From the IMG/VR virus record IMGVR_UViG_2778261630_000008, positions 1 through 36,187 of that record: a DNA stretch of 36,187 bases; one strand, written 5' to 3'. The translations under genes and the position numbers were made by a program. A model generated the notes under the pieces. That model saw only the letters and a list, made by a program, of their open reading frames with translations, ran no database searches and was not told the origin of the DNA. How positions within the stretch are numbered: the stretch's first letter is position 1; every line of letters starts with the position of its first letter. The stretch comes from a virus (taxonomy: Duplodnaviria; Heunggongvirae; Uroviricota; Caudoviricetes). Positions 11,311 to 34,034 of this stretch are shown piece by piece.

Positions 11311-12344
11311 TGGGAAAGAGTAAGAAGAACCGCGCTGCGTCGACGAAACAGATCCAGAATAAAAGCCAGACTTCAGCCGAAGCATTCAGCTTCGGTGATC
11401 CCGTTCCTGTTCTGGACCGCCGCGAACTGCTGGACTATGTGGAATGCGTACAGATGGATCGTTGGTACGAGCCGCCTGTGAGTTTCGACGGACTGGCGCG
11501 AACCTTCCGCGCCGCCGTGCATCACAGCTCACCGATTGCAGTGAAGTGCAACATTCTGACCAGCACCTACATCCCTCACCCGCTGCTCAGCCAGCAGGCT
11601 TTTTCGCGTTTTGTACAGGACTATCTGGTTTTTGGTAACGCCTACCTGGAGAAACGCACAAACCGCTTCGGTGAAGTTATCGCCCTTGAGCCTGCACTGG
11701 CAAAATACACCCGACGCGGGTTAGACCTTGATACCTACTGGTTTGTGCAATACGGCATGACTACGCAGCCGTATCAGTTCACGAAAGGCAACATTTTTCA
11801 TCTGATGGAACCGGACATCAACCAGGAGATCTACGGCCTGCCTGGTTATCTTTCTGCCATTCCGTCAGCTCTGCTCAACGAGTCCGCCACGCTGTTCCGC
11901 CGCAAGTATTACATTAACGGCAGTCATGCAGGCTTCATCATGTACATGACCGATGCAGCGCAGAACCAGGAGGATGTGAACAACCTCCGCAATGCGATGA
12001 AAAGCGCCAAAGGTCCTGGTAACTTCCGTAACCTGTTTATGTACTCGCCTAACGGTAAAAAGGACGGGCTTCAGATTATCCCGTTGTCAGAAGTGGCGGC
12101 GAAGGATGAGTTCCTGAATATCAAGAACGTGAGCCGGGACGACATGATGGCGGCGCATCGTGTGCCGCCACAAATGATGGGGATAATGCCTAATAATGTC
12201 GGGGGGTTTGGGGATGTGGAGAAGGCCAGTCGCGTATTTGTACGTAATGAATTAACGCCCTTGCAAAAAAGGCTACAAGAGCTGAACGACTGGCTGGGCG
12301 AAGAAGTGATTAAATTTACGCCCTATATTCTTTCAGAAGAATAA
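11310..12344 (+). CDS. Q: portal protein
   Basis: ORF-track start 11307 is TTG; ATG at 11310 gives 344 aa, the P2 gpQ length. Confidence 0.95.
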   Translation: MGKSKKNRAASTKQIQNKSQTSAEAFSFGDPVPVLDRRELLDYVECVQMDRWYEPPVSFDGLARTFRAAVHHSSPIAVKCNILTSTYIPHPLLSQQAFSRFVQDYLVFGNAYLEKRTNRFGEVIALEPALAKYTRRGLDLDTYWFVQYGMTTQPYQFTKGNIFHLMEPDINQEIYGLPGYLSAIPSALLNESATLFRRKYYINGSHAGFIMYMTDAAQNQEDVNNLRNAMKSAKGPGNFRNLFMYSPNGKKDGLQIIPLSEVAAKDEFLNIKNVSRDDMMAAHRVPPQMMGIMPNNVGGFGDVEKASRVFVRNELTPLQKRLQELNDWLGEEVIKFTPYILSEE

Positions 12345-12352: not shown

Positions 12353-13051
12353 TTATTTGTTTCTTCTTTGTTCACGCCTTGTCTTGGCTTCGATAAGGCG
12401 TTGAGGTTCAGTGTAAAGCCGTTCTAAAAAAAGATAGGTAAAATCTTCAAGATCCTCAGCAGCAGCTTTATCCAAAATACCTTCATGCGCTCCATCATTT
12501 CCGTCATCTTTAACGCATTCAGCTAGTTCCCTTAAAGCTTCAGGCAGTAGATGATTATCAAATAACCACTCCATTCTTAACCCTAGGCTTCTCCTTATTT
12601 TTTGCGCAGGCCCTTGCTCCCCATCAGGAAGAAGTCCTTTTGTGGCATAATCAAGGCAAAGCCTAAACATGGTTGCTGCTGCATTATAACAACCTATAGC
12701 CAAACATTTCGCCCCTTCCTCATATGCACTATTGATATGCTCAGGTAAGAACTCTGGTGGCTCCTCTACTGCTAAGTCTGCCGGTGATATAGGCCTAACA
12801 ACCTCTGCAACTTCCTTTAAGCCGAATATTCCACTTTCCCAATTATAGCCATCTAAAGTTTTATTTTTCGTTAAAGGTCTGCAAAGAAACATTGTCGTTT
12901 TATGACACTCTCGGCAAACACAATAGACCTCGTACTCGTATGTTTTACCCCCGCCCAATGCATTGTAAACCCTAGTGCAATTCAGCCCATTAACATCAAA
13001 CGCTATTTTTTGTGATCCACATCGTGGACAGTCATCTACTAACATAACCAT
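12353..13051 (-). CDS. cargo protein, 232 aa: N-terminal 4-Cys zinc ribbon plus helical C-terminal domain (possibly DUF4145-like); function unknown
   Basis: ATG 13051 with GGGAGGAG RBS; CPRC...CVCRECH cysteine pairs; more AT-rich than the phage backbone; inserted between the portal stop and cos. Confidence 0.6.
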   Translation of the reverse strand: MVMLVDDCPRCGSQKIAFDVNGLNCTRVYNALGGGKTYEYEVYCVCRECHKTTMFLCRPLTKNKTLDGYNWESGIFGLKEVAEVVRPISPADLAVEEPPEFLPEHINSAYEEGAKCLAIGCYNAAATMFRLCLDYATKGLLPDGEQGPAQKIRRSLGLRMEWLFDNHLLPEALRELAECVKDDGNDGAHEGILDKAAAEDLEDFTYLFLERLYTEPQRLIEAKTRREQRRNK

Positions 13052-13475: not shown

Positions 13476-14777
13476 TTATTCGGTTAAATTTTTCAATGGC
13501 GCACCTGGAAGATGATGATGAACAAACTTACCTTTATATTCAATATGATAGCAAAGTAACATATAGAACAATGTTAGGCATGAGTTATAATTTTTAACAT
13601 TTTCTTGCCAAGAATGTTCTTTAAAATGTTTTGCGTGCGCAGATCTATTTCTTGCTTTATACCAAGTTGTAGCTAACTCTTCTGGAAAAAATCCTTTTTT
13701 TGCCATATTAAAAAGAGTTCCTTTGACCGAGGATCTTCCACCTTTTTCTAGCAATTGAATAATCGAAGATTTAACTCTCTCGTTTATTTCAAGGTTTTCT
13801 ATCACAGGCTTAGACTCACAACATAAACTGGAAAACTCAACATCTTCTATTTTAAAAGTAGAGTAAAATTTATTTATTACACCTTCAATTGAAACAGTTA
13901 GACTGAGAGTTTCATTTTCTAAATCAGATTGATGAGCATTAAATATCTTTCTCCAATAATAGTAAAAGGTTTTATCAGTCTCGAATTTTTTAATGTATGC
14001 TTGCGAAAATTGCACCCATTCATTTAGATAATATGGAGCTCTTTGAGGAATAAAAGTCATCAGCCTCTGTTTTTCTTTATTATCAATATGCTTAAATATC
14101 AATAACCTACTGTCATTCCCTTGCCACAACACTAAAGCAGGATTGAGTAGAACCCCAGATGCAACGGACAATGAATCTAGAATACTTTTAGCATATAAAT
14201 AAGAAAAATCATCATCAGAATCAAGACAAATCCTAGTGTATTTATCCTCTAAAAGAATGCTAACATTTATATTATTCAACGAAAATACGGATCTCGTCCT
14301 ACGCTTCCCTTCCTCACCTAAGTCTTGAAATTCATTACAAGGGATATTAATTTTTTGCGGGATGAAAAATATTACTTTATGTTTTTTAAAATCCCCATCT
14401 ATTTTTCTTTTTATTTCATAAAGCTCACAATCAATGCTTACCCCTTGTTGTGAAGCATTGATATTTACATATGGGTCAACATCTTTTGCTTGCCATAAAT
14501 ACCCATTCAAATCAATCGCATTCATAGAAAAAAGATATTCACTACCGATGATTTCTCCATAATCAAGATGATTATATGTTGGGCATGTGCTAAATTGAGC
14601 ATCAGTTTCTTTATGTAAGAACTTTAGATGAATTTTATTATTTTTATAATAAAAAAATCCAGAACCTGTAAACATTTTTGGATTTTCATTAGTTTGTTGT
14701 GTGAGAGTCACCTCAATTAATTCATGAGTAAATGAACCAGCCAATAGTTCTTCAATTTTTTCTTTAACAATGTTCAC
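13476..14777 (-). CDS. cargo protein, 433 aa, strongly AT-rich; C-terminal HEPN-like R-N-x3-H motif; candidate anti-phage / abortive-infection effector
   Basis: GTG 14777 with AAGGAAGGA RBS; motif WYKARNRSAHAKHF near the C-terminus; sits at the cos-to-gene-A accessory locus (old/tin position of P2); composition contrasts with the backbone. Confidence 0.7.
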   Translation of the reverse strand: MNIVKEKIEELLAGSFTHELIEVTLTQQTNENPKMFTGSGFFYYKNNKIHLKFLHKETDAQFSTCPTYNHLDYGEIIGSEYLFSMNAIDLNGYLWQAKDVDPYVNINASQQGVSIDCELYEIKRKIDGDFKKHKVIFFIPQKINIPCNEFQDLGEEGKRRTRSVFSLNNINVSILLEDKYTRICLDSDDDFSYLYAKSILDSLSVASGVLLNPALVLWQGNDSRLLIFKHIDNKEKQRLMTFIPQRAPYYLNEWVQFSQAYIKKFETDKTFYYYWRKIFNAHQSDLENETLSLTVSIEGVINKFYSTFKIEDVEFSSLCCESKPVIENLEINERVKSSIIQLLEKGGRSSVKGTLFNMAKKGFFPEELATTWYKARNRSAHAKHFKEHSWQENVKNYNSCLTLFYMLLCYHIEYKGKFVHHHLPGAPLKNLTE

Positions 14778-15619: not shown

Positions 15620-18034
15620 TTAATACAGGTTCCGCCACTTATCATCTTCCTGCAAACGCTGGTTCCGATAGAAGACACGCAGGCCTGCTCCTGACGGAAT
15701 ACTGCCGCCGCGAAGGAGTAAATCGACCTCTTTCTCGCTGCCATCAAATCCTCTGGACTTCAGTTCATAGACGAGCTGCTGTCGCTGATGGTCTGTAATT
15801 CGCTGTTTGTAGTCTTTACGCCGTTTCGGTTTCACCTGGCGTAACCTTGCAGCCAGTTCCCGGCGCTCTTTTTTGCTCATACTGTGCAGGTAATCGTGCA
15901 ACTCCTTGTCATTCATACGGGTAATATCCGTTCTGGAGTCCCCATCAGCTGATTTGTCTTTCCCTTGTTGGTTCAAATTTTCAGCAAGGGGACAGTTATT
16001 GCCACGAGTCCAAGGGGCGCAAGCGCCCTGGTCGGCTGCCGCCTCCTGAACGTCAACGGCCTTACGAACCATTTTCCACTTCACTGCATGAGTGCAGATC
16101 TTGCCCTCTGCAATGGGTGACCAGATGCCATAAATACGAATACCGTGATCGCCATAGGCGGTTGGCTCTTCGTTGATTTCATAAGCGGTTCTGATGAGGT
16201 GATATTTGCGGGGAACCAGTACGCCGCCCTGCTTCATGATGTAGGTGGCAAAACAACCAGCATCAGCAGCAGCCAGGATGGCATCAAGGCGCGGGTTATC
16301 CAGTACCGGCGCACCTGCTTTTTTGTCACCCTGTTGCCTTGCCGCCTGACCAGCCAGCAATCGCAGTTCACGGTAAGCCTGACGCCCCGGAATGCCAAAG
16401 AAGCGGAATTGCTGAACACGATGCAGAGACGCCCAGGCATTAACATATTCAGCGTTATCACGCAGGGATTTACCCGTTTCCTTACTGATCTCGCCAGCCA
16501 GACCACGCCCGTCAATATTCTTACTGATATATTTCGCAATGTAGCTTGTCGGCGTTCCTTTGCGCGGGTTTATCAGCTCAGACTTAAAGCGTGGCCCCGT
16601 GTTATTGCCCAGCTCCTCGCGGTCTTCTCGGATGGCAAACTTACGCAACAATGCAGTAATGGCGCGGCGGTCTTTTTTGCGCATGAAACACAACAGGTGC
16701 CAGTGAACTGTGCCGTCATGATGCGGCTCAGCCACCCGCACGCCATACCAGCGCAACCCGGCTTTGTGCATAGCCTTACGAAATGCAGCAAACATGCCGA
16801 CCAGATAATCGCTGCTTTGTCTTACTGTCGCGTTGGTCCAGGTCGGGTTTGGCCTGCCGTTATTTAGCGTGGAATGGAAACGTGACGGACAGGTGATGGT
16901 GTAGAAAACGGCGCAGTCACCACGCATTTCCGCGATAAGCTCCAGGCCTTTAACACAGGCCATCATCTCGTTGCGGCGATGCGCCGGGTTGCTGCTGCTG
17001 GCGTTTACCACATCCTCCATGTTCAGCGTGTCGCCGTCTTCGTTCACCAGTTCATGAGAACGGAAAAACTCCAGCGACTTACGGCGCTGCTCACGTTTAT
17101 GCATCACGGCTTCATAGCTGACATAGGGAGATGCTTTTTTGCTGACCAGGCAGACAGCACGCAACTGCTCTTCCCGCCATTCGCAACGCATCTTCCATAA
17201 TTTCCGATACCACCAGTCGGCGCACAGCATACGCGCCAGCGAACCCGGAATGAGTTCATAAGGCACAGGTTTGCGGCGGTTTCTTTTCCGGCGGAGTTGC
17301 TCAAACGCAGGCGGTATGACATCCAGTCGCAGGGTTTCTGCAGCCACCTTTTCCCATGTCTTGCGGATTTCTTCTGGCTTAACATCATCGGAGGCGTACA
17401 AATCACCACAAGCGGCATCAAGACACATGCTCATATGCGCAGCGACAAGGGTAGACAGGCGTTTCACCTGATCCTGACTCATTTCAGGCAGGATCAGCAG
17501 ACCGTCCAGCCCTTCATGGCTTGCCATAAAACGAAAAGATGCAGATAGCTGGCTGTCGCGTACATGCTCCAGTCGTTCCAGACATGGCTTAATCGTCTCA
17601 CGCAAATAGCGGGAATAAGCCTTTGGCCTGCCCAGGCTGCTGAAATATTCAATACGTTGCATCAGCGGCTTGCTGATATGGGAAGGCTGGGCGTTGACGT
17701 CAGCCAGAATGACCATATCCGGATTAAAACGCTGCTGCTCATGCGCCAGCTTTGCCCGGCTAATGAGCTTATCCTGCTCCATTTCGCGTTGGACAGGATC
17801 ACGGGATTCATTAAAGAAATAACGCTCCCAGACCTGATCACTCAGTGCCTCGCGGCGCAGTTGTTCCTGCTCGTTATCGGTAGCGTACAGAGTGATCAGG
17901 TTTGAAAGCGCAGAAACCGGCGCAACTTCCGCCGGGTCCAGATAAGGGTTAATGGCCTTTTTCGGGCTGTTCCATGAGAATGCTGCGGCGACCTTGTTAA
18001 AGCCGCTGCAGTTGTTCATATCAGCATGGCTCAT
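15620..18034 (-). CDS. A: replication initiation endonuclease (rolling-circle initiator)
   Basis: 804-aa ORF, convergent with Q across cos as in P2; start overlaps dam stop (ATGA). Confidence 0.95.
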
Positions 18035-21712: not shown

Positions 21713-22753
21713 ATGACCATCAGAAAACAGCCGAACGGAAAATGGTTGTGTGAGTGCTATCCCAATGGACGCAATGGTAAGCGCGTGCGTAAGCAATTTG
21801 CTACCAAAGGCGAAGCCATTGCGTTTGAAAGCTTCACAATGGAAGAAGTGAACAAAAAACCATGGCTAGGGGAAAAGGAAGATCGGCGACATCTATCAGA
21901 ATTAATTGAGCTGTGGTATTCCCTGTATGGTCAAACACTCGCAGACCCCAAGCGCCTCATGGCGAAACTTAGAATTATCTGTAATGGTCTAGGCGATCCC
22001 ATCGCCTCAGAACTGACAGCTGGTGAGTTTACGAAATACCGCGAAGCACGGTTAAAAGGTGAAGTACGAAATGAAGATGGCACGCTTATGTCGCCAGTTA
22101 AGCCCCGCACGGTAAATCTTGAACAGCGCAACCTATCATCTGTTTTTGGTACACTGAAAAAGCTGGGCCACTGGTCAGCCCCCAACCCGCTTGCTGGGCT
22201 GCCAACATTTAAAATTGCTGAGGGTGAATTGGCGTTCCTGACCCCGGAAGAAATTAAACGTCTGCTGGATGCCTGTGCTGATTCTCAAAGCCCCAGTCTG
22301 CTGATGATTGCAAAAATATGCTTGGCCACCGGCGCACGCTGGAGCGAAGCCGAAAACCTACAGAGTCATCAGGTATCAAAATACCGTATCACTTATACCA
22401 AGACTAAAGGAAAGAAAAACCGAACAGTGCCTATTTCAAAGGATTTATATGAAGAACTGCCTAAGAATAGGGGAAAATTATTTACACCTTGTAGGAAAGC
22501 TTTTGAACGTGCGGTAAAACGAGCTGGTATCGAGCTACCAGAAGGGCAATGCACACACGTATTACGACATACATTTGCAAGTCACTTTATGATGAATGGC
22601 GGAAACATACTGGTGCTGCGCGATATTCTGGGCCATGTCGATATAAAAATGACAATGATTTACGCCCACTTCGCTCCCGACCATCTGGAAGATGCTGTAA
22701 CCAAAAATCCTCTTGCTAACCTTGGATGGAGAAAATTAGAAAGTGCTTGTTAA
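21713..22753 (+). CDS. int: tyrosine integrase
   Basis: 346 aa with C-terminal R...H.LRHT...Y catalytic region; 4 bp after cI stop. Confidence 0.9.
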   Translation: MTIRKQPNGKWLCECYPNGRNGKRVRKQFATKGEAIAFESFTMEEVNKKPWLGEKEDRRHLSELIELWYSLYGQTLADPKRLMAKLRIICNGLGDPIASELTAGEFTKYREARLKGEVRNEDGTLMSPVKPRTVNLEQRNLSSVFGTLKKLGHWSAPNPLAGLPTFKIAEGELAFLTPEEIKRLLDACADSQSPSLLMIAKICLATGARWSEAENLQSHQVSKYRITYTKTKGKKNRTVPISKDLYEELPKNRGKLFTPCRKAFERAVKRAGIELPEGQCTHVLRHTFASHFMMNGGNILVLRDILGHVDIKMTMIYAHFAPDHLEDAVTKNPLANLGWRKLESAC

Positions 22754-22859
22754 TAACTATATCCAACAATACCCATGGATATCGTACTTACTTATCATAA
22801 TATATTTTATATATATATGCCTTGAATTATATCTATGCGTATCAAAAAAAGGCTTTAAC

Positions 22860-23789
22860 ATGGATGAAAGGCCATTAACAAGTCAATACTTATTTAAACA
22901 ATCACTTAGGATTCCTGTATTTTCAGCGATATACTTTGGTATATTTTCCTGGCTTGGACATTCCCCTCAATTTGATAGTGAGGGCTTTAATAATTTCATT
23001 GCAATTAGCAAGCTTCCTATCGCCTTACTTTCTTTGTCCATACCATTTGTTGCTGTCGTAGCAAACATACACCGCACAGTTCAAACAAACCGACAAATTG
23101 AGGAAACCAAGCAAAAGAATCTATCTGATAGCTACTATAGCCATCTAAAGTTCGTTACTGATTATTTCACCAATTTACCTAACAAAACCATTAAACGCGA
23201 ACGTCATTATGGTACTAAAGAGATAAGTTATAAAATTAACTACCCAATACATCTATATAGATATATTTTCATAAATAGCTCACCAGAGAAGGGACGGCCT
23301 AAAAATACAGATAAAGAATACATACGTGAAGTAAATAATCACTGGGTTGATATACTAAAAAACCTAGAGAAGATACTTTCATCTAATCGTGGCTCTCAGT
23401 TTGACGAAGTTTTAATCCGTCAAATGCAATCTCTTCATTCAATAGAAAAACACTTATCCGAACTTAATCGAATGCTTTGCCTAACTCCCATGGAGTTAAA
23501 TGAACATGCAACTTTATACTTTGATGGATATGAAATGATTACTAACTTCATGTCCAGCATTGAACTTGGCGATACAATTGAAACCTACTTCAAATTTACC
23601 ATTGATATTCTTGATATTACCGATAATTTCCTTTCATTCAAGGATGATGGCTCGTCTGGGCAAATCATTATACTAGCAAGATTACTGAAAGATAATAATC
23701 CAGCTATCTTTGATGAAATTGTAACAAACAAAGGGAAGGCTCAACCTTCGTTGACCTACAATGGCGACAGATTGGCGACAGAACATTAA
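22860..23789 (+). CDS. cargo protein, 309 aa, AT-rich, two N-terminal TM helices; function unknown
   Basis: ATG 22860 after an AT-rich promoter-like stretch (TATATATATA); hydrophobic segments IPVFSAIYFGIFSWLG and IAISKLPIALLSLSIPFVAVVANI; lies between int and the att core. Confidence 0.6.
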   Translation: MDERPLTSQYLFKQSLRIPVFSAIYFGIFSWLGHSPQFDSEGFNNFIAISKLPIALLSLSIPFVAVVANIHRTVQTNRQIEETKQKNLSDSYYSHLKFVTDYFTNLPNKTIKRERHYGTKEISYKINYPIHLYRYIFINSSPEKGRPKNTDKEYIREVNNHWVDILKNLEKILSSNRGSQFDEVLIRQMQSLHSIEKHLSELNRMLCLTPMELNEHATLYFDGYEMITNFMSSIELGDTIETYFKFTIDILDITDNFLSFKDDGSSGQIIILARLLKDNNPAIFDEIVTNKGKAQPSLTYNGDRLATEH

Positions 23790-24083: not shown

Positions 24084-24103
24084 TTCATAAAGGAGCGGCC
24101 AAA

Positions 24104-25297
24104 GTGGCAAGAACGACACGCCCCCTGACCAACACAGAAGTGCTGCGCGCAAAAGCGTTAGAAAAGGATCTTACATTGCATGATGGCGATGGTCTTTTTC
24201 TTCTCGTTAAAACGAACGGTAAGAAGTTATGGCGTTTCCGTTATCAACGTCCGACAACAAAGCAGCGGACAATGATGGGGCTAGGTGCCTTCCCAGCCAT
24301 ATCGCTTGCAGATGCCAGGAGATTAAAAGCTGATTATCTTTCATTATTAGCCAATGGAATTGATCCGCAAATTCAAGCGAAAGTGGCAGAGGAACAGCAA
24401 CAAATCGCGCTTGACAGTATTTTTTCAACAGTCGCCGCTAACTGGTTTCTGCTCAAAAGCAAAAGCGTTACCCCTGATTACGCAAAAGACATTTGGCGTT
24501 CACTTGAGAAAGACGTATTCCCCACTATCGGTGAGATCCCCGTTCAGAAGATCAAAGCCCGAACATTAATTGAAGCTCTTGAGTCCGTCAAAGCTCGAGG
24601 GGCGCTAGAGACCGTTCGTCGACTGGTGCAACGCATTAACGAGATAATGATTTATGCGGTTAACACCGGTTTGATTGATGCAAATCCAGCATCAGGTGTT
24701 GGTATGGCATTTGAGAAACCTAAAAAGAAAAATATGCCAACACTACGCCCAGAGGAATTGCCTAATCTGATGCATTCATTAACAATGTCAAATCTATCTG
24801 TCTCTACTCGATGTCTCATTGAATGGCAACTCCTAACTCTTGTCCGCCCTTCTGAAGCTTCAGGCACTCAATGGGCTGAGATCGATTTAGATGCGAAACT
24901 CTGGATAATTCCAGCTGAAAGAATGAAAGCAAAACGAGAACACATTGTTCCTTTGTCCCCCCAAGCTTTAGACATTTTGAATATAATGAAACCCATCAGT
25001 GCTCATCGTACACATGTTTTTCCTAGCAGGAGTGACCCCTTAAAACCAATGAATAGCCAAACGGCAAATGCCGCATTAAAGCGAATTGGCTTCGCTGGCA
25101 AACTAGTAGCCCATGGTCTACGTTCTATTGCAAGCACCGCCTTAAACGAACGTGGTTACAATCCTGATGTTATAGAAGCAGCTCTTGCTCATAGCGATAA
25201 AAACGAAGTACGTCGCGCTTATAATCGCTCGGTTTATTTAGAAAAACGTAAGCAACTAATGAATGATTGGGGGCAAATTGTGCACCCCCAATCATAA
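24104..25297 (+). CDS. int: P4-family tyrosine integrase (IntA-like)
   Basis: 397 aa, GTG start with AAGGAG RBS; strong resemblance to CP4-57 IntA / P4 Int as recalled; ~185 bp downstream of the ssrA core. Confidence 0.9.
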   Translation: MARTTRPLTNTEVLRAKALEKDLTLHDGDGLFLLVKTNGKKLWRFRYQRPTTKQRTMMGLGAFPAISLADARRLKADYLSLLANGIDPQIQAKVAEEQQQIALDSIFSTVAANWFLLKSKSVTPDYAKDIWRSLEKDVFPTIGEIPVQKIKARTLIEALESVKARGALETVRRLVQRINEIMIYAVNTGLIDANPASGVGMAFEKPKKKNMPTLRPEELPNLMHSLTMSNLSVSTRCLIEWQLLTLVRPSEASGTQWAEIDLDAKLWIIPAERMKAKREHIVPLSPQALDILNIMKPISAHRTHVFPSRSDPLKPMNSQTANAALKRIGFAGKLVAHGLRSIASTALNERGYNPDVIEAALAHSDKNEVRRAYNRSVYLEKRKQLMNDWGQIVHPQS

Positions 25298-25346
25298 AAA
25301 ACGATTTCAGTCCAAGCAACTATTAAAATTCAATAGATTGGGGACT

Positions 25347-26931
25347 TTATGTAGATTTAACATCAAGATGTTCTCCACAGTATCCGATAATTATTTTACG
25401 TTTACTTCTATCAACCCAAAAGTGGATTCTTATAGTTTCAGACTTGGAGCGGGCTGTTCCTATACCAACGTGTTGGAACATCTTTATTTTTTGACCATTA
25501 TAGTCAAACTCTCTCATTTTAGATAATGTAGCAGATCGCTCTACCGTCTCTGATTCATTTGCTGAATAAGCATCACCAAGAATATCTTTGGCCTTATTAT
25601 CTCCATTTTCAAGATACTCAAGAAGATATTCTGTACAAAGTTTATATAATAAATAAATCAATCTATGATTGTGTTTGAATTTCGATGAGTTCCTCGCTGA
25701 AGAAAATGCTGATTTAAGAATCTCAACATTATTAGGGATTAGGATTTCTAATAAACTCAAAACGGACTCAGGGTTTAACCTATTGCTAATTAAAGATATT
25801 ATCTTTTCAACATCAACATCACCATCAGTAGCTTTTCCATGGTATTTCCTAATATCGTATTTTAACCTTTCTAAGTCTACTTCTATTTTATTTTTTTCAA
25901 AGACAACTGCATCATGCTTTGCATCCAATTCCTCAATCCTTTTTAAATAATCAAGCTCTAATTCTTCACTAGCAGCCTTAAACTCCTCAAACTCTAAGAG
26001 GACTTCATCGAGCAAAGCTTCATACTGAGCACCATCTTTTAACTCATTTAATCTCTGCCTAAAAGAAATATTATCATCACGCTGTCTTTTGGCACGAACA
26101 TTAGCTGGTGATAAATGCAACTTTTTATTATAGCCATTAAAAGCATGCGTTATTACTGATAATATATAATTATTAATAGGAACATTACCCGCTTTAATTT
26201 CATCAACTTGCTTCGGGAGAAAAAGTTTTGTTCCTATATACCCTGACTTATTCATTGGGTAAATAATATTTATTGCCCCCCCCCCAAGATGAATAGTGTC
26301 TTCCAAGTAATCGTTCCATTTCCCAAGAGTCCATTTTACCACTTGTTGCAACAACCTGAGCAAGCCCAATAAGTTGCTCCTGTAGTTTTTCAGGTATAAC
26401 AGGAAATCCATCATTACCTTCACTAATAAAAACTAGCGGGTAGGTCCTGTCATCCCTAGAAATTTCATGCATAAGATACTGAAAGTCGCCATACTGACTT
26501 TTAATATAATCCACTTTCTGGCCGATAACATCCAGATCGAATACACAATTCCGTTTCAAATATGATACCAGAGATGGACGAGTAGCAATTGGTTTTGCAT
26601 CAACCATAGTGCTAACATCACTTATTTCTAACAATATAGATATAAACGTGCTTCCTTTTTCACGTCTAATTCCAATTTCTGTAATCCATTGTCTACCGCT
26701 CACATTCCTATCAGGATGAGTGTACATTATGGAATATATTTTAGGTTCCATTCTATCAGCCGTGTAGGTTCTAACATAGGCTCGCTCTAAATTCCAATCA
26801 CGCCGCGAAAGTAGCTCATCTGTTGATAGGCGAATATTAGCAACCCTATTAAGCCAACCACACACAGAACGCACTACGCTAAAAAAACTATCTTCACCGA
26901 TGCAATTAAACGAATTAACATAAACTAACAC
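25347..26931 (-). CDS. satellite hotspot gene, ~528 aa if read through a G10 tract; as written split into 227-aa and 358-aa overlapping frames; function unknown
   Basis: GTG 26931 with AAAGGAGA RBS; frame A (26931..26248) and frame B (26423..25347) overlap by 176 bp with the homopolymer inside the overlap; loss of one G fuses them; AT-rich; between int and cos. Confidence 0.55.
26276..26285. repeat. homopolymeric tract, C10 on plus strand (G10 on coding strand)
   Basis: Ten consecutive C at 26276..26285, at the junction of the two frames of the hotspot gene. Confidence 0.95.
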
Positions 26932-27019
26932 TACAATCTCCTTTCACTCATTTAAAGGGGAGGCTGAAAAGGAGTTATCTTATATACTTTTTGTAAATTA
27001 TTTCAATCTTTTGCGCGCA

Positions 27020-27038
27020 GTGCTTTCCCCGCCTCGCC
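27020..27038. other. cos site of the satellite (P2/P4 type)
   Basis: GTGCTTTCCCCGCCTCGCC is the reverse complement of GGCGAGGCGGGGAAAGCAC, the 19-nt P2/P4 cohesive end as I recall it. Confidence 0.8.
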
Positions 27039-27140
27039 CGCCCGCTTTGCGGGGCGGTTTTAATGCAGTTTCACTGACACGCTCAGGCCGCGCCGGGAAT
27101 GGCGCGGTCTGCAGAAAATGAGGCAGGAAAACGCATGCAA

Positions 27141-27172
27141 AGCCATGCACCTTATCGATGCATGGCTTTTTT
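27141..27172. terminator. stem-loop terminator between cos and psu
   Basis: AGCCATGCA / TGCATGGCT 9-bp stem with T-run on the plus side and A-run on the other; could terminate the sid-delta-psu transcript. Confidence 0.45.
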
Positions 27173-27202
27173 CAGTAAAAACAGGCGGATTTTCGGGGAA
27201 TT

Positions 27203-27775
27203 TTACACAGACTGACGTGATGCCAGTTGCGCACTTTTACGCGAAAAAATCATGTTCTGCGCAGGGGTGAATTTTTCACGGCTGTCATCCACCGAAGCCG
27301 CGTCAGGCCTGAATCCGATGGCCGTTAAAATGTCGCTATCCTGTGCGGAATAATTAATTTTTTCCCCCTTCGCAAGCCAGGACAGAAGGGCTTCACGCAG
27401 GGCATCTGTGGTACGCTGTATGGCACAGTTTCGGGCAATGGCCGTCAGCTCACTGTAGCCCATCAGCTCCGGTGCCAGTGCCGCCGCCAGTGCTGTACCG
27501 TGCTGCTGCATAAAATCATTCAGCCGGTCGCGGATGCTGATGTGCTGAACGGCTTCATGCGAACGAATATAACGACCGGCGGCCTGATTCACCTGCCATT
27601 TTCTGACTTCGATAATATTGCGTAATTCGTCCAGGCGGCTGACGTTTCTGCCTTCTCCTGACAGAAGCCGCAGATATTCCTGTTCGGCCGCTGCCAGCTC
27701 ATTTTTGCGTTGCAGCCATGCTGCTTTGTTATTCTGACAGGTGTCAAAGGCCTGCTGTAAGGCTGTGCTTTCCAT
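27203..27775 (-). CDS. psu: polarity suppression protein Psu (capsid decoration / Rho antagonist)
   Basis: 190 aa, the P4 Psu length; last gene of the sid-delta-psu operon next to cos. Confidence 0.9.
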   Translation of the reverse strand: MESTALQQAFDTCQNNKAAWLQRKNELAAAEQEYLRLLSGEGRNVSRLDELRNIIEVRKWQVNQAAGRYIRSHEAVQHISIRDRLNDFMQQHGTALAAALAPELMGYSELTAIARNCAIQRTTDALREALLSWLAKGEKINYSAQDSDILTAIGFRPDAASVDDSREKFTPAQNMIFSRKSAQLASRQSV

Positions 27776-27848
27776 CGTTATCTCTTTCTCATCATGCTGA
27801 AGAATAAAAATACGGTGTGCGGCGACGGCCGGGGTTAACCGGCAGCCC

Positions 27849-28349
27849 TCATTCCAGACGCAGCGAATATGATTGTGTTTTTAACCGTACTGGCGGCAGT
27901 TCCTGTTTTTCATGCAGGCGTTCTGCCAGTTCGTCCGGCGTGACCGGGCGGACAATGAAGCGGTTGATGGTCTGAAGCGTTTTAAACACCAGACCACAGC
28001 CCGGATCCGTGCACACATAAAAACGCTCGGTGACTTCCTGAGACAGACGCCGCGATGTTCTTGACAGTGCAAGGCCTTTACATCTCCGACAACAATATCC
28101 GGTAACAAGCATTCTTTTCGGGCGTTTCATACTGCCGGAGGCCGACGTCAGTGAATCGAGGTATCTCTGTTTGCCTGAAATGTATTCCATTCCTGAATCT
28201 TTACAGTCAGAGAAAAAGCTTTCACTCGCTTCAAATGTCGCAGAGCAATAAATATTCCGGCACTGTGCAATCATTATCTTGGTGCCATCGTCCATGAAAT
28301 GTGCGCGACGGGTGTGAGCAACATGTCCACACGACGGGCAGTAAATCAT
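27849..28349 (-). CDS. delta: Delta late-gene transactivator (duplicated Ogr-type zinc finger)
   Basis: 166 aa with two CxxC...CxxC units (CPSCGH... and CCRRCKG...); start overlaps sid stop. Confidence 0.9.
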   Translation of the reverse strand: MIYCPSCGHVAHTRRAHFMDDGTKIMIAQCRNIYCSATFEASESFFSDCKDSGMEYISGKQRYLDSLTSASGSMKRPKRMLVTGYCCRRCKGLALSRTSRRLSQEVTERFYVCTDPGCGLVFKTLQTINRFIVRPVTPDELAERLHEKQELPPVRLKTQSYSLRLE

Positions 28350-29080
28350 GACAGCAGTCCTCTGGCCTTAAGCTCTGCTCCCTGCTGGTCTATTTTGTCC
28401 TGCCACACCTTGCGCTGTGCCGGTGTGCCTGCCACCTCATAATCCATGTGCGGGAGTGTTGCCGCTGACAGTCCGGTCAGCCGGAGAACCGGCTCGCCGG
28501 TGAGGCTGATTTGCATCTGTTTTATTTTCTGTTCCAGCGATGATTTCACCTGCTGCATGACAGCTTTATCGGGTGCGACGTAGCCCTGATGGCCGGTGGT
28601 GTTGGCGAGCGGATTTTCCTGTACCAGGATGCTCAGATGCATTGCCCGGACAAGCGCCTCACAGGTTTCATTCAGGGCGTGTTCCAGCTCATTCTCTGCA
28701 TACAGACTCAGAAGGTGATGATGTGCCTTCCGGTAGGCGGTGGCCGTGCTGTCACACGCCCCTTTCAGGCGTTCACGTTCAAAATTCAGCACCACGGCCA
28801 GATTGTCATATTCCTGTACCAGCTCCCGGCGTGCCACGCGCTCAATGTGGCGCTGTTTCAGCTCGTCGCTCAGGACACCTCCGGCTGCACGAAAGGCCGT
28901 GCGCCAGTCGTCAGCGTCGTTTCCGTCGGCCTGCGCCAGCGCATTTTTTTCCTGCTCTGCCCGTTCAATAGCCGTGACGGTCTCATCCATCAGGCGGGCG
29001 TTCTCAAGATGAGCGACTCTGGCCTTTTCCAGTTGTGCCAGCGCGGGTTGCAGATATTCAGGGATGGTGTTGTCAGACAT
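28346..29080 (-). CDS. sid: Sid external scaffold (capsid size determination)
   Basis: ORF-track start 29098 is GTG; ATG 29080 with GAGGAG RBS gives 244 aa, the P4 Sid length. Confidence 0.85.
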   Translation of the reverse strand: MSDNTIPEYLQPALAQLEKARVAHLENARLMDETVTAIERAEQEKNALAQADGNDADDWRTAFRAAGGVLSDELKQRHIERVARRELVQEYDNLAVVLNFERERLKGACDSTATAYRKAHHHLLSLYAENELEHALNETCEALVRAMHLSILVQENPLANTTGHQGYVAPDKAVMQQVKSSLEQKIKQMQISLTGEPVLRLTGLSAATLPHMDYEVAGTPAQRKVWQDKIDQQGAELKARGLLS

Positions 29081-29114
29081 TTTCCGGCTCCTCGTCACTT
29101 CAGGTTAAGAAAAT

Positions 29115-29132
29115 TGTGACGTACACCGGACA
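29115..29132. promoter_or_regulatory. TGT-N12-ACA activator site upstream of sid (Psid-type late promoter)
   Basis: TGT 29115..29117, 12 nt, ACA 29130..29132, just upstream of the sid start. Confidence 0.5.
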
Positions 29133-29249
29133 ACAACACGACGCATTGCAGATGTGCCAGCCCTGACACAGGAGACTCATCCTCAGACCGGCAAGCCAGG
29201 AAAAGGTCGCAGGAAAAACCGGCTTACTGTTTGTTTTTTTATATTTTAC

Positions 29250-29363
29250 TGTTCACCTCTGTTCACCATAAGAAAAAAGATAAGTAATACAGTAAGTTAA
29301 ATGGTGAACAATCGCAGTAATGACTGTTCACCGTCTGTTCACCACTGTTCACCACTGTTCACC
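29250..29363. repeat. iteron cluster (TGTTCACC octamers), ori-like
   Basis: Six direct TGTTCACC copies (29250, 29260, 29325, 29336, 29346, 29356) plus one inverted GGTGAACA (29303); this octamer is the alpha-protein binding repeat of P4 ori/crr as I recall it. Confidence 0.7.
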
Positions 29364-29521
29364 CGTTGATGGGCTTTTTGTGCTGTTTATTACTTTTTAT
29401 TTTTATTAATTCACTGAAATAAATAAGAAAAAACAATTTGTATTTCACTATAATTTTTTCCAGCCCCTTCCAGAGCGTTTTAAAGCTATCTGGCGCTGAT
29501 GTGCAAAAAATACACAGCCAT

Positions 29522-29539
29522 TGTAAGACAGCCTGAACA
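29522..29539. promoter_or_regulatory. TGT-N12-ACA activator site upstream of vis (PLL-type promoter)
   Basis: TGT 29522..29524, 12 nt, ACA 29537..29539; ~110 bp upstream of the vis start. Confidence 0.45.
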
Positions 29540-29641
29540 AATCCCCCCTGTTGCGTCTGCTGAAAATATTCACAAAATAAAGCGCTACCCGAAGCCGGAC
29601 GGACTTATCCGGTGCTGTATGGACATTAACGAGGTAGCCCG

Positions 29642-29908
29642 ATGCAAGCTGTTTTTTCTTCCCCGTCTCCCGCTCCTGTAACGCCACTGATTCCGCTGCC
29701 GGACATCACGCAGGAGCGTTTTTTACGTCTGCCGGAAGTGATGCACCTGTGCGGCCTGTCACGCTCGACCATCTATGAACTCATCCGTAAGGGGGAATTT
29801 CCGCCGCAGGTGAGTCTTGGCGGTAAAAATGTGGCCTGGCTGCACTCTGAAGTCACTGCATGGATGGCCGGGCGCATTGCCGGACGCAAACGGGGGTACG
29901 ACGCATGA
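29642..29908 (+). CDS. vis: Vis / AlpA-family excisionase-type regulator
   Basis: 88 aa, the P4 Vis (orf88) length; AlpA-like HTH ([29 protein letters not shown]); GAGG RBS. Confidence 0.8.
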
Positions 29909-30036
29909 TGATGCCTGTTCTGCAAAAACTCCCTTTTTCTGGCTTGCCTTTTTCCGGCATTTGCGGATATAGTTTTTCCGCTGCCGCAAAATCGGCAGCC
30001 GGGCGTGAGAACCCGTGTAACTCGAAGGCGACATAT

Positions 30037-30058
30037 GACGCGCCATGCGTCTTTTTTT
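30037..30058 (+). terminator. short hairpin with T7 tract (candidate attenuator/terminator in the vis-to-orf66 gap)
   Basis: GACGC / GCGTC 5-bp stem (30037..30051) followed by TTTTTTT (30052..30058); weak stem. Confidence 0.35.
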
Positions 30059-30297
30059 GTGTCGCAATCAACGCCACAGAGCGCCAGATTATGGTGTGGC
30101 GTGTGGTTTGCCGTGCAGGTATGATCCTGTTCGCAATCACATGTTATGCCACTGAGTCAATGGTAGCTCAGGCGGGGCAGCCTCCGGGCTGGCCGGTATT
30201 CTTCGAGGCCGGTATTCTCACCCCCGTCTGGGCTATCGCCATCGAGCGTGAGAACTCCGGCGATAGCAGTTATTTGCTACTCGAAGGAGGCTGCCTT

Positions 30298-30495
30298 ATG
30301 GCTACAACCCTTACCCCCTCACACCCTGAATTTGTCTTTGTGTTTGCCGCTGTCCGTCGCGCAGACCGTCATCCCCGTATCTGCATGCTTCGCACCGTCG
30401 CCGGTGATGAACGCAGTGCCCGCCGTTCCCTTGTCCGTGACTATGTGCTCTCCCTTGCTGCCCGTCTGCCGGTGATGGGGGTGTCCCGTGCGTAA
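30298..30495 (+). CDS. small left-operon protein, 66 aa (kil position of P4?)
   Basis: ATG 30298 preceded by GAAGGAGG; the longer upstream extension of this frame looks non-coding and low-complexity. Confidence 0.4.
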
Positions 30496-30775
30496 TAAAA
30501 AAGCCCCTCAGACCGTCTCAGCGCGTCATGACGCCCGTGAACACCTCAGCATTGAGGCTTACCATAAGCTCAACCGCGCCAGCGCCGTATCCCAGTTTGT
30601 TGGGGGTGATTTGATTCACCGTGAACTCTCCGGCCTGCATCAGCTCTACATTCCGCATATTTTCAGCTACCTGAATGAGGATATTGATTTTGTGCTGAAT
30701 GAGCTGAAAGCCAAAGGCCTGTGCCGTGATTTTCTCGCCCAGCAGAAAGACCGGGGAGACAGGACGCATGTTTGA
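30488..30775 (+). CDS. small left-operon protein, 95 aa (epsilon position of P4?)
   Basis: GTG start overlapping the previous stop; size and order relative to orf151/cnr/alpha match my recollection of P4 epsilon; no sequence-level confirmation. Confidence 0.4.
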
Positions 30776-31223
30776 TTTTCCCCAGCCCGGTGAGATTTAC
30801 CGTTCTGCCGGTTTTCCCGATGTGGCCGTGGTCGGCATTCTGGAAGACGGTATTCCGTGGGAAATGCCGTACCGCTGCCCGGACATTGTCTGGAACCCGT
30901 ACCGCCGTAAATTCAGTATCCTTGTGCGTATCCTCGCTGACGGACGCACCACAGACATCCCGCTGGGGCGTTTTCTGCGGGAATTTACCTGTGACCGTCC
31001 TGACCTGTTTAAACGCAGCCCCGTAAACCGGCATGCGGTACTGAAAGAAATGGCCGGAGACCCGGAATTACAGAAATGGCGGGAGAAATATCTGGATATT
31101 TACCCGCAGGCCCCTGTTCCGGTCAGCCGGGCGGCACCGGTGGCGCGGGAATGGCGGGAAATTCCCCGCACGGAGTCTGACCCGGAAATCACCCCGGATA
31201 ACAGTTACCGCAATTATCTGTAA
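30768..31223 (+). CDS. left-operon protein, 151 aa (P4 orf151-like)
   Basis: ATG 30768 ([12 protein letters not shown]...) with GGAG upstream; length and position equal P4 orf151 as recalled. Confidence 0.55.
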   Translation: MFDFPQPGEIYRSAGFPDVAVVGILEDGIPWEMPYRCPDIVWNPYRRKFSILVRILADGRTTDIPLGRFLREFTCDRPDLFKRSPVNRHAVLKEMAGDPELQKWREKYLDIYPQAPVPVSRAAPVAREWREIPRTESDPEITPDNSYRNYL

Positions 31224-31358
31224 TTAAAAAACGACACCCGAAAAATTAAATGTGCGTATTCGCGCAGGGATACGCACGTCTTCAGGAGACGCAGATATGC
31301 CTTATCAGTTAATGCAACCGGCACGGAATGCAGTCATCTGTCACAGGGAGGAAAACAA

Positions 31359-31679
31359 ATGAAAACACCCTTACCGCCCGTCTTACGCGCTGCCCTTTAC
31401 CGTCGCGCTGTCGCCTGTGCCTGGCTGACCGTGTGCGAACGTCAGCACCGCTACCCGCATCTCACCCTTGAGTCACTGGAGGCGGCCATCGCCGCTGAGC
31501 TGGAAGGCTTTTATCTGCGCCAGCACGGTGAGGAAAAAGGGCGTCAGATAGCCTGTGCCCTGCTGGAAGATTTAATGGAATCCGGCCCCCTGAAGGCCGC
31601 GCCGTCGCTGTCCTTTCTCGGGCTGGTTGTGATGGATGAACTCTGTGCCCGTCACATAAAAGCGCCGGTACTGCACTGA
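31359..31679 (+). CDS. left-operon protein, 106 aa (P4 Cnr/orf106-like)
   Basis: ATG with GGGAGGAAAA RBS; 106 aa immediately upstream of alpha. Confidence 0.55.
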
Positions 31680-31693
31680 AGGAGAACAACACC

Positions 31694-34027
31694 ATGAAAA
31701 TGAACGTAACCGCCACCGTCAGCCATGCGCTCGGCCACTGGCCGCGTATTCTCCCGGCGCTGGGGATTCAGGTGCTGAAAAACCGTCATCAGCCCTGTCC
31801 GGTCTGTGGCGGGAGTGACCGCTTCCGTTTTGATGACAGGGAGGGGCGCGGCACCTGGTACTGCAATCAGTGTGGTGCCGGTGACGGCCTGAAACTGGTT
31901 GAAAAGGTGTTTGGTGTTTCCCCGTCCGACGCGGCCGCAAAGGTGGCTGCCGTGACCGGCAGCCTGCCCCCGGCTGACCCGGCAGTGACGACCGCCGCCG
32001 GTGCTGAAACAGACGCTGCCCGGAAGAACGCCGCCGCACTGGCACAAACCCTGATGGCGAAAACCCGTCCCGGAACCGGTAACGCCTACCTGACCCGCAA
32101 GGGCTTTCCCGGCCGGGAATGCCGGATGCTGACCGGCACACACAGAGCCGGTGGCGTGAGCTGGCGCGCCGGTGACCTTGTGGTGCCACTGTATGACGAC
32201 AGCGGCGAACTGGTTAACCTTCAGTTAATCAGCGCTAACGGCCGTAAGCGCACCCTGAAAGGCGGACAGGTCAGGGGCACCTGTCACACCCTTGAAGGAC
32301 AGAATCAGGCCGGAAAACGTCTGTGGATAGCGGAGGGATACGCGACCGCACTTACCGTGCATCACCTGACCGGTGAAACGGTGATGGTGGCGCTTTCTTC
32401 CGTGAACCTCCTTTCTCTGGCCAGCCTTGCCCGGCAGAAGCATCCGGCCTGTCATATTGTCCTTGCTGCTGACCGTGACCTCAGCGGTGACGGCCAGACA
32501 AAAGCCGCCGCAGCCGCAGATGCGTGTGAAGGTGTTGTTGCCCTGCCGCCGGTCTTCGGTGACTGGAATGATGCCTTCACGCAGTACGGCGGGGAAGCCA
32601 CCCGTAAGGCCATTTATGATGCCATCCGGCCACCGGCTGAAAGCCCGTTCGACACCATGAGCGAAGCGGAGTTTTCCGCCATGAGTACCAGCGAAAAGGC
32701 CATGCGTATCTATGAGCATTACGGCGAGGCGCTCGCGGTCGATGCCAACGGCCAGCTTCTGTCCCGCTATGAAAATGGTGTCTGGAAGGTGCTGCCGCCA
32801 CAGGACTTTGCCCGGGATGTGGCCGGGCTGTTTCAGCGTCTGCGCGCGCCGTTCTCCTCCGGGAAGGTGGCCTCCGTGGTGGACACCCTGAAGCTGATTA
32901 TTCCGCAGCAGGAAGCCCCCTCCCGCCGCCTGATTGGCTTTCGTAACGGCGTGCTCGACACGCAGAGCGGCACGTTCCACCCGCACAGTCCGTCACACTG
33001 GATGCGCACCCTGTGCGATGTGGATTTCACCCCGCCGGTGGAAGGGGAAACGCTGGAAACCCACGCCCCCGCGTTCTGGCGCTGGCTTGACCGTGCCGCC
33101 GGTGGTCGTGCGGAAAAACGCGACGTGATTCTGGCCGCACTGTTTATGGTGCTGGCAAACCGCTACGACTGGCAGCTCTTTCTGGAGGTGACCGGCCCCG
33201 GCGGCAGCGGCAAAAGTATCATGGCCGAAATAGCCACCCTGCTGGCCGGTGAGGATAACGCCACGTCGGCCACCATCGAGACGCTGGAATCCCCGCGTGA
33301 ACGTGCCGCGTTAACTGGCTTCTCACTGATACGCCTGCCGGACCAGGAAAAATGGAGCGGCGACGGTGCCGGACTCAAGGCCATCACCGGCGGCGATGCG
33401 GTGTCCGTTGACCCGAAATACCGGGATGCATACTCCACGCATATCCCGGCGGTAATTCTGGCCGTGAACAATAACCCGATGCGCTTCACCGACCGCAGCG
33501 GCGGCGTGTCACGCCGGCGGGTGATTATTCACTTCCCGGAACAGATAGCCCCGCAGGAGCGCGACCCGCAGCTTAAGGACAAAATCACCCGCGAGCTGGC
33601 GGTCATCGTGCGTCACCTGATGCAGAAGTTCAGCGACCCGATGCTCGCCCGGTCACTGCTTCAGTCCCAGCAGAACTCAGACGAGGCGCTGAACATCAAA
33701 CGGGATGCCGACCCGACGTTTGATTTTATCGGCTATCTGGAAACCCTGCCGCAGACCAGCGGCATGTATATGGGGAACGCCAGTATCATCCCGCGCAATT
33801 ACCGTAAATACCTCTATCACGCCTATCTGGCCTACATGGAGGCAAACGGCTACCGGAATGTACTCAGTCTGAAAATGTTCGGGCTGGGGCTGCCGGTGAT
33901 GCTGAAGGAATACGGACTGAATTACGAGAAGCGCCATACCAAACAGGGGATACAGACCAACCTGACGCTGAAAGAGGAAAGCTACGGCGACTGGCTGCCA
34001 AAATGTGACGACCCTGCAACAACCTGA
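31694..34027 (+). CDS. alpha: alpha primase-helicase (zinc-binding N-terminus, primase, SF3-type helicase, iteron-binding C-terminus)
   Basis: 777 aa, the P4 alpha length; CPVCGG...CNQCG zinc motif at the N-terminus, Walker A GPGGSGKS mid-protein; GGAGAA RBS. Confidence 0.95.
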   Translation: MKMNVTATVSHALGHWPRILPALGIQVLKNRHQPCPVCGGSDRFRFDDREGRGTWYCNQCGAGDGLKLVEKVFGVSPSDAAAKVAAVTGSLPPADPAVTTAAGAETDAARKNAAALAQTLMAKTRPGTGNAYLTRKGFPGRECRMLTGTHRAGGVSWRAGDLVVPLYDDSGELVNLQLISANGRKRTLKGGQVRGTCHTLEGQNQAGKRLWIAEGYATALTVHHLTGETVMVALSSVNLLSLASLARQKHPACHIVLAADRDLSGDGQTKAAAAADACEGVVALPPVFGDWNDAFTQYGGEATRKAIYDAIRPPAESPFDTMSEAEFSAMSTSEKAMRIYEHYGEALAVDANGQLLSRYENGVWKVLPPQDFARDVAGLFQRLRAPFSSGKVASVVDTLKLIIPQQEAPSRRLIGFRNGVLDTQSGTFHPHSPSHWMRTLCDVDFTPPVEGETLETHAPAFWRWLDRAAGGRAEKRDVILAALFMVLANRYDWQLFLEVTGPGGSGKSIMAEIATLLAGEDNATSATIETLESPRERAALTGFSLIRLPDQEKWSGDGAGLKAITGGDAVSVDPKYRDAYSTHIPAVILAVNNNPMRFTDRSGGVSRRRVIIHFPEQIAPQERDPQLKDKITRELAVIVRHLMQKFSDPMLARSLLQSQQNSDEALNIKRDADPTFDFIGYLETLPQTSGMYMGNASIIPRNYRKYLYHAYLAYMEANGYRNVLSLKMFGLGLPVMLKEYGLNYEKRHTKQGIQTNLTLKEESYGDWLPKCDDPATT

Positions 34028-34034
34028 CCCACCT

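Follow-up and report, generated by a model that had tools for sequence, protein, structure and literature searches.

The window analysed here, a stretch of 36,187 nucleotides (nt) from IMG/VR virus record IMGVR_UViG_2778261630_000008, is a piece of an Escherichia coli chromosome that carries a P2-like prophage and then a P4-like satellite. Our subject is the part of this satellite between vis (29642–29908) and the ATG of kil (30298). We found that this region is very probably the immunity module, i.e. the module for maintenance of lysogeny, of a P4-like satellite prophage and that it is built as in phage P4. Modules of this kind are already known; the one described here has a recognition sequence that differs from that of phage P4. 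In a preliminary description, the region appeared as a gap with hairpins and a direct repeat, in which an immunity RNA was suspected. The observation was partly confirmed and, at the level of the sequence, its interpretation is supported. All positions given below refer to the window, and all features of the immunity region lie on the plus strand.

The assignment relies on homology to P4 and on RNA family models. Positions 29400–30900 are 93.5% identical to phage P4 in an end-to-end alignment that includes ORF88 (vis), the 'cI' open reading frame (ORF) of older annotation, epsilon and ORF151, and the mean column identity to P4 was 96% for positions 29880–30520. The 88-residue ORF in front of the region is the homologue of P4 ORF88, an AlpA-type excisionase and regulator annotated in P4 as 'excisionase and transcriptional regulator'. 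The gene order of the satellite, namely vis, immunity region, kil/eta, epsilon, orf151, orf106 and alpha, is that of P4. A scan of the whole window with Rfam revealed exactly three matches above the gathering score, all of them in the immunity region and all on the plus strand. The C4 antisense RNA model (RF01695) matched positions 30156–30243 over the full model length with 74.3 bits (gathering score 45, E = 7e-13), isrK (RF01394) matched 29980–30057, likewise over the full model length, with 70.7 bits (gathering score 50, E = 2.3e-13), and c4-a1b1 (RF03163) matched 29967–30019 with 50.4 bits (gathering score 46.7, E = 5.2e-10). C4 and isrK are the Rfam models which detect the CI RNA of P4 and its seqA leader (PMC3632133, PMC4825925, PMC10111431), with C4 recognising the CI RNA itself (PMC3632133, PMC10111431); the definition of the C4 and c4-a1b1 motifs goes back to Weinberg et al. 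2010 (PMC2864571). A P4-type immunity RNA with a premature-termination leader, which had been proposed for the gap together with a covariance-model search as the means to check it, was thus borne out by the scores of these three families and by the identity to P4. Taken singly, the features of the region are within chance, as a terminator scan returned 2 sites where 2.1 were expected in shuffled sequences. We consider the hairpins and the repeat to be real because they jointly match three covariance models above the gathering scores.

The C4 match corresponds to the CI immunity RNA (30156–30243), a cloverleaf-like RNA of about 80 nt with a minimum free energy of -48 kcal/mol (z = -5.35). It is closed by helix 1 of 17 base pairs (bp; 30161–30177 with 30222–30238), which is followed by CCA (30239–30241); the tRNA-like acceptor features for a putative processing by RNase P, which would give a stable RNA of about 79 nt, are present. 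Helix 2 comprises positions 30178–30191 and helix 3 pairs 30192–30196 with 30209–30213. The loop of helix 3 carries recognition segment 2, TCTTCGAG (30200–30207; RNA UCUUCGAG), and recognition segment 1, TTCTCAC (30215–30221; RNA UUCUCAC), is single-stranded between helix 3 and the closing helix. Across 11 relatives all 297 of 297 pair cells of this fold were paired, including 3 compensatory pairs.

Both segments are complementary to two targets. The first, seqA, is part of the leader and consists of box 1, GTGAGAA (30005–30011), and the single-stranded box 2, CTCGAAGG (30021–30028). The second, seqC (30248–30290), begins ten bases after the closing helix of CI and repeats both boxes, box 1 at 30248–30254 and box 2 at 30280–30287, where it overlaps the Shine-Dalgarno sequence GGAGG of kil (30286–30290). 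Pairing of CI with seqA and with seqC is alike, comprising 7 of 7 positions in box 1 and, in box 2, 7 Watson-Crick pairs and one G-U pair out of 8. The bipartite pattern GTGAGAA-N(5-30)-CTCGAAGG occurred exactly twice in the 36-kb window and in none of 100 shuffles. A perfect complementarity of 10 nt was also seen between GGCAGCCTCC (30176–30185), i.e. helix 2 of CI with its UCCG loop, and the Shine-Dalgarno region of kil, GGAGGCTGCC (30286–30295). It was rejected as a third contact: close relatives keep it by unchanged or wobble positions (a wobble in L156), it is absent in the divergent L153 and L210, and no compensatory change was found among these sequences.

P4-like regions were collected from IMG/VR with two different anchors, and covariation of the pairing was determined in an alignment of 14 sequences in which mismatched cases were deliberately included. 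Even so, 96.2% of the seqA:CI cells and 98.6% of the CI:seqC cells were paired, and for each of the two interactions 11 of 15 intermolecular pairs were changed on both sides. Controls with a slid partner reached 38–52% paired cells, and the observed values were not attained by any of 500 shuffles. The complementarity between sub-segments which had been suggested as a further check is therefore not only present but also covaries across relatives. A census of 127 distinct P4-like regions revealed perfect complementarity (Watson-Crick or G-U) at all four sites in 119 of them, with 20 loop alleles and 6 tail alleles in 38 combinations. Probing with non-cognate loops gave a perfect site in 66 and 106 of 2413 cases (2.7–4.4%), mostly for alleles that are a wobble apart, and with non-cognate tails in 2 and 0 of 635 cases (0–0.3%). 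Among close relatives, nearly all variation of CI is located in its two unpaired segments. The allele pair of the window, TCTTCGAG with TTCTCAC, was carried by 6 distinct sequences of the census set, which comprised IMG/VR contigs, P4 and the window. A scan of genome contigs with the 18-mer CTCCGGGCTGGCCGGTAT returned mostly chance matches in GC-rich genomes and no result was drawn from it.

In several elements (L110, L142, L156, L109, L117, L189, L229 and L251) seqA and/or seqC no longer matched the CI RNA of the same element. In L110 and L142, seqA carries one allele while CI and seqC carry another, which suggests recombination between the leader and the CI gene. The L156 contig from IMG/VR harbours two complete immunity modules with different alleles 2.6 kb apart; its leader-motif matches are located at 7106–7124 and 9742–9760, and each module extends about 400 nt downstream of the motif. 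Co-resident satellites (L121/L165 and L124/L128) showed two different alleles in one genome, one of them being that of the window, and two identical alleles in another. As a test of heteroimmunity, co-residence thus offers few cases, namely one genome with different alleles, one with identical alleles and one contig with two modules.

Compared with P4, segment 1 (the tail) of the CI RNA is unchanged, whereas segment 2 reads UCUUCGAG in the window and CCUGUGAA in P4 with four differing positions. For three of these four loop positions, seqA and seqC both carry the compensating change, and at the fourth a G-U pair is retained; box 2 of the targets is CTCGAAGG in the window versus TTCACAGG in P4. 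The predicted duplexes of the window CI amount to -30.5 kcal/mol with its own leader and -34.0 kcal/mol with its own seqC, as opposed to -26.4 and -28.2 kcal/mol for P4 CI with the leader and the seqC of the window, respectively. Because the three loop substitutions are compensated in both targets, we predict an immunity specificity that probably departs from that of P4 or overlaps with it only in part, and the duplex energies predict that cross-immunity with P4 would be reduced or absent.

From the census one can speculate further that immunity of P4-like satellites follows a combinatorial RNA code, a proposal for which we consider the arguments evenly balanced. According to it, the two CI segments would vary independently and each change would be matched in both targets; the element of the window (loop UCUUCGAG, tail UUCUCAC) would be heteroimmune or partly cross-immune to P4; and the recombinants with mismatched seqA (L110, L142 and L156) would be natural variants that lack autoregulation at the leader while control at seqC is kept. 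Differences in specificity between phiR73 and P4 and between P1 and P7 are reportedly old single-case precedents. No paper describing such an allele census was found in the searchable literature, and no mention of the immunity RNA was found in the large surveys of P4-like elements which we searched. What may be new is limited to the wide and modular range of allele combinations and to the recombinants with a mismatch between seqA and CI.

The elements upstream of CI agree with the P4 arrangement as well. A PLE-type sigma-70 promoter (29944–29973) with the -35 hexamer TTGCCT, a spacer of 18 nt and the -10 hexamer TATAGT is the only promoter-like site in 29100–30800, and its -10 hexamer was aligned with the '-10 consensus' annotated at 2367–2372 in the P4 record X02534 from 1984. 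The isrK model begins at 29980, 7 nt downstream of the -10 hexamer, and the PLE transcript is predicted to start near this position. The near-direct repeat CCTTTTTCTGGC (29932–29943) and CCTTTTTCCGGC (29947–29958) flanks and overlaps the -35 hexamer and is a possible candidate for a regulator-binding site.

The isrK-like leader RNA of 79 nt (29980–30058), supported by the isrK and c4-a1b1 matches, contains the seqA region. Its 5' hairpin, hairpin 1, consists of GCTGCCG-CAAAAT-CGGCAGC. The hairpin with a 7-bp stem and the loop CAAAAT noticed before does exist, but it is located at 29980–29999 instead of 29971–29996. Hairpin 2 (30000–30015) was found by folding, has 4 bp and exposes GTGAGAA in its loop. 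The leader ends with an intrinsic terminator composed of the stem-loop GACGCGCCATGCGTC (30037–30051) and a run of seven T (30052–30058), exactly where the preliminary description had placed it. It is the sole site resembling an intrinsic terminator on the plus strand of 29100–30800 and is kept in relatives; both this terminator and the promoter-like site are found at the places expected from P4. We take it to be t1 of P4. An equation of the same terminator with timm was rejected, as timm is a Rho-dependent terminator at 8365–8209 of P4 (X51522; PMC3177188) and this fragment maps inside kil, to 30298–30454 of the window, where DNA homologous to it is present.

Between the leader terminator and the CI RNA, a long spacer hairpin rich in G-U pairs (30087–30158) was predicted with a folding energy of -34 kcal/mol (z = -4.86); it can be folded only as plus-strand RNA. 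P4 folds into an equivalent long hairpin, although its sequence carries many substitutions, differs in the distal part and is longer by 9 bases. The divergent relatives L102 and L122 form short hairpins only, with energies no better than those of shuffled sequences (z = -0.87 and -0.24). The spacer hairpin may be a putative precursor or processing element, or a folding insulator.

The similarity of the leader to isrK raises the question whether the leader RNA (29980–30058) is also a trans-acting small RNA with the longer read-through transcript as its target; it might, for instance, open the ribosome-binding site of kil or titrate CI. The match above threshold over the full model length is what such a role would lead one to expect; moreover, IsrK has dual roles as small RNA and mRNA and the seqA RNA was called its structural homologue by the authors (PMC4825925), and IsrK-like sequences are required in P4-like prophages of S. 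Typhi (PMC3632133). However, the downstream genes are unlike the orf45-anrP arrangement of Gifsy-1, and complementarity of the leader is known here for CI only, no search having been aimed at other sites. We regard a trans role as unlikely, and it would add to the explanation by a P4-type immunity module rather than replace it.

On the model of P4, the immunity module would operate as follows. Transcription from the sigma-70 promoter PLE would begin near 29980, and the 79-nt leader with seqA would end at the intrinsic terminator. RNA that reads through would contain the spacer hairpin followed by the CI RNA, and the latter would be cut from the PLE transcript by RNase P and 3' trimming. Binding of CI to seqA on the nascent leader would increase termination at the intrinsic terminator and so result in autoregulation, and binding of CI to seqC would block translation of kil and stop transcription ahead of the replication genes epsilon and alpha, in part by Rho-dependent termination inside kil. 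In P4, the intrinsic terminator after seqA is said to serve CI autoregulation, a further terminator reportedly lies between cI and timm, and RNase P is said to generate the 5' end of CI. As far as it is summarised in PMC4825925, PMC3632133 and PMC10111431, the CI RNA of P4 is processed from the PLE transcript and pairs with seqA and seqC, which leads to premature termination, a block of kil and the shut-off of the replication genes.

Several points weigh against this interpretation or narrow it. Expression, processing and immunity function of the module are all transferred from P4 by analogy. The names and roles of the individual terminators and the processing by RNase P are presumably those reported for P4, in part as given in short later summaries. 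Box 1 is identical to that of P4 and the non-cognate duplexes are still predicted to be fairly stable, so that the different specificity is a prediction only. Finally, the prophage shows some decay, with a neighbouring cargo gene frameshifted, and the module could be silent in the host strain.

The last point can be extended to the assumption that the module is an intact-looking relic, that the satellite is cryptic in this strain and that its RNA elements are no longer expressed or needed. In addition to the split of the satellite cargo gene by a homopolymer frameshift, P4-like elements are in general often defective (PMC8628076). Nevertheless, the promoter hexamers, both targets, the terminator, the CI fold, kil and the eta frame are all intact, and the ORFs for integrase, psu, delta, sid, epsilon and alpha are of full length. 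A region of 411 nt recurs at 100% identity in one other E. coli genome, its identity is at least 99% in 54 complete genomes of this species, and 1048 of 5426 genomes carry some version of it. We therefore consider a relic improbable.

The region had also been described as non-coding, with a long ORF unlike that of a protein. This proved correct for the peptide, as the eta-only part has no coding-type conservation, but not for the frame, as the known eta frame runs through the whole region. The eta reading frame comprises 196 codons (29905–30495) and its ATG overlaps the stop codon of vis as ATGA (29905–29908). It traverses the PLE promoter, the leader, the CI RNA and seqC, and its last 65 codons are kil. 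From the vis-overlapping ATG to the kil stop, the frame was open in 54 of 57 related elements, including divergent ones with insertions or deletions, and the other two frames contained 2–8 stops each. Just 64 of 5000 dinucleotide shuffles of 29905–30297 (1.3%) had no in-frame stop. The variable columns were distributed over the three codon positions as 25/22/29 in the eta-only part, 10/5/25 in vis and 6/1/12 in kil. In the eta-only part, the frame is maintained while the peptide is not conserved, in agreement with reports that termination is prevented when eta is translated.

The long ORF corresponds to the known P4 gene eta (PMC10111431). An alternative view of it as a spurious over-extension of kil by PGAP, which annotates a coding sequence of 196 residues as 'Icd-like' (NZ_CP065970, 2205654–2206244), was rejected, as the conserved open frame and PMC10111431 show eta. 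According to Forti et al. 1999, as summarised in PMC10111431, full-length eta of P4 is made only from transcripts of the late promoter, which lies upstream of vis; its translation is coupled to that of the alpA homologue and keeps termination from occurring. By the same summary, Kil of P4 is the C-terminal part of Eta and is translated from PLE transcripts (Forti et al. 1999 via PMC10111431). In the satellite of the window, activation of the upstream late promoter by a helper would produce transcripts that enter the region via vis, and ribosomes would move on from vis to eta at their ATGA overlap. With eta translated throughout the region, termination would be prevented and late-promoter transcription would be insensitive to immunity.

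The gene kil (30298–30495) encodes an Icd-like cell-division inhibitor of 65 residues and is the first gene translated from PLE transcripts. The NCBIfam model NF033153 (Icd-like) matched residues 12–59 with 1.6e-21, entirely within the last 65 codons, and no NCBIfam model matched the 146 ORF codons upstream of kil (29860–30297).

With a frame that is open and conserved, the region might be viewed as simply protein-coding, the 'Icd-like', 'Ash' or 'transcriptional repressor' protein being the repressor and the hairpins and repeats incidental. Family searches seem to favour this view: Pfam Phage_ASH (PF10554) matched residues 22–143 of eta with 8.7e-22, spanning promoter to seqC, and phrog_6928, 'transcriptional repressor', matched with 7.5e-88. 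At the corresponding position, P4 records list a product of 137 residues as 'cI gene product' or 'put. ash gene', and the RefSeq record NC_001609 (8168–8584) as 'transcriptional repressor'. Matches to protein families are, however, to be expected for the translation of a sequence that is constrained as RNA but has its frame maintained, and we read the Pfam, PHROG and RefSeq labels as legacies of the early cI/ash assignment and not as evidence for a repressor protein. Although the profiles of the Phage_ASH and PHROG 6928 families were matched, the amino acid constraint expected of a repressor was not found, as the eta-only part has no excess of variation at third positions, unlike vis and kil. 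Substitutions in RNA loops that are compensated in two distant targets are predicted by no protein model, three RNA covariance models scored above their thresholds, no part of the Icd-like domain lies upstream of the last 65 codons, and in the later literature the repressor is an RNA and the translation of eta is what matters (PMC4825925, PMC3632133, PMC10111431). On these grounds a repressor protein is very improbable. Two minus-strand ORFs over the region (102 and 95 residues) had no match in Pfam.

The direct repeat GGCCGGTATTCT of 12 nt was confirmed, with its second copy at 30207–30218 as described before and its first copy at 30191–30202, the claimed start having been off by one base. 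Both copies are located inside the CI RNA: their CCGG cores pair as helix 3, and with the TATTCT that follows, the loop begins in copy 1 and the single-stranded tail in copy 2. In P4 and other elements, which have different loop alleles, only about 9 of the 12 nt are repeated, so that the full length of 12 nt is peculiar to this allele by chance. A role of the exact 12-nt repeat with its 16-nt spacing as protein-binding sites on DNA (iterons or operators), for which one could also quote that Lin's 1984 annotation of P4 lists it merely as 'imp. direct repeat 4/4'', is hardly credible in view of this placement within CI and of the shorter repeat in other alleles.

The P4-like satellite (24100–34030) is directly adjoined by the P2-like prophage (1–23800), so that helper and satellite stand in tandem. 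The prophage contains ORFs for capsid, scaffold, terminase and portal proteins (7493–12344), a replication endonuclease (15620–18034) and an integrase (21713–22753); the integrase and the primase of the satellite are located at 24104–25297 and 31694–34027, respectively. In one related genome, an ssrA remnant was observed between prophage and satellite. No complete E. coli genome covered more than 86% of positions 12000–36187. An ORF of 348 residues between the two integrases (22743–23789) showed a weak match to the PADLOC '2TM effector' (2e-4) and no match in NCBIfam. Two minus-strand ORFs of the prophage, 12353–13051 and 13476–14777, occupy the position of a known variable hotspot between the portal and replication genes. 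The product of the former is a DUF4145 protein that was matched weakly by PADLOC PD-T7-4 (1.2e-6), and the latter had no match in the family searches.

A cargo gene on the minus strand of the satellite (25347–26931) is located between integrase and psu. A run of ten C (plus strand, 26276–26285) breaks it into two ORFs that overlap, and the two halves match the PADLOC candidate defence family HEC-07. Strain FDAARGOS_1058 has nine C at the same homopolymer and an intact cargo gene of 527 residues. The split could be a frameshift, phase variation or a sequencing error.

With respect to annotation, the assignment of the region is settled: the apparent gap is occupied by a promoter, a regulatory leader, a small repressor RNA and a second target, all nested in the eta frame. 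Public annotation hides these RNA genes, and the Phage_ASH and PHROG repressor families are built on the translation of an RNA-constrained stretch. Knowledge of how P4-type immunity works is unchanged by these results. The relatives provide a natural experiment in RNA-RNA recognition, as hundreds of satellites share one scaffold in which mainly two short segments and two targets vary, and the set of alignments could help to predict mutual exclusion between satellites within a cell and could guide the design of orthogonal antisense terminator switches.

Among known systems, the immunity region of phage P4 is closest. Promoter hexamers, leader hairpins, intrinsic terminator, CI fold, first recognition segment, kil and the eta frame are the same, whereas the second recognition segment differs together with matching changes in seqA and seqC, and the spacer hairpin shows many substitutions and a deletion of 9 nt in the window. 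P4-like satellites with alternative specificity share the architecture and likewise have their specificity set by complementarity of CI to two targets. The retronphage phiR73 is reportedly such a P4-like satellite with an alternative immunity specificity; in contrast to it, the element of the window carries no retron and adjoins a P2-like prophage.

The ImmI region of P1 and P7 (c4, icd, ant) belongs to the same Rfam C4 family and shares the family of the upstream target motif c4-a1b1. It is said to have two targets as well, the downstream one over the start of an Icd-like gene, and to show natural differences in specificity. The module of the window operates in a similar manner but is not a member of this group, as no ant follows kil but homologues of epsilon, orf151, orf106 and alpha; P4-type control acts by termination of transcription of the genes for derepression and replication of the satellite, and the module is embedded in the eta frame.

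With IsrK/STnc1160 of Gifsy-1 from Salmonella, only the leader RNA family is shared, the leader of the window matching the isrK model end to end. The genes downstream are orf45-anrP in Gifsy-1 and P4-type genes here, which places the module outside that group too. For Gifsy-1, a trans-activating role of the short RNA was shown, and the analogue of CI was proposed to be a stable processed RNA that lies downstream of IsrK (PMC4825925). Finally, linear plasmid prophages of the N15 type (phiKO2, PY54 and relatives) show 76–82% DNA similarity over the leader and the CI part, which are annotated there as 'transcriptional repressor', 'terminator' and 'Icd-like protein'. These are temperate phages and not satellites, and their similarity to the element of the window is limited to the RNA module of roughly 300 nt.

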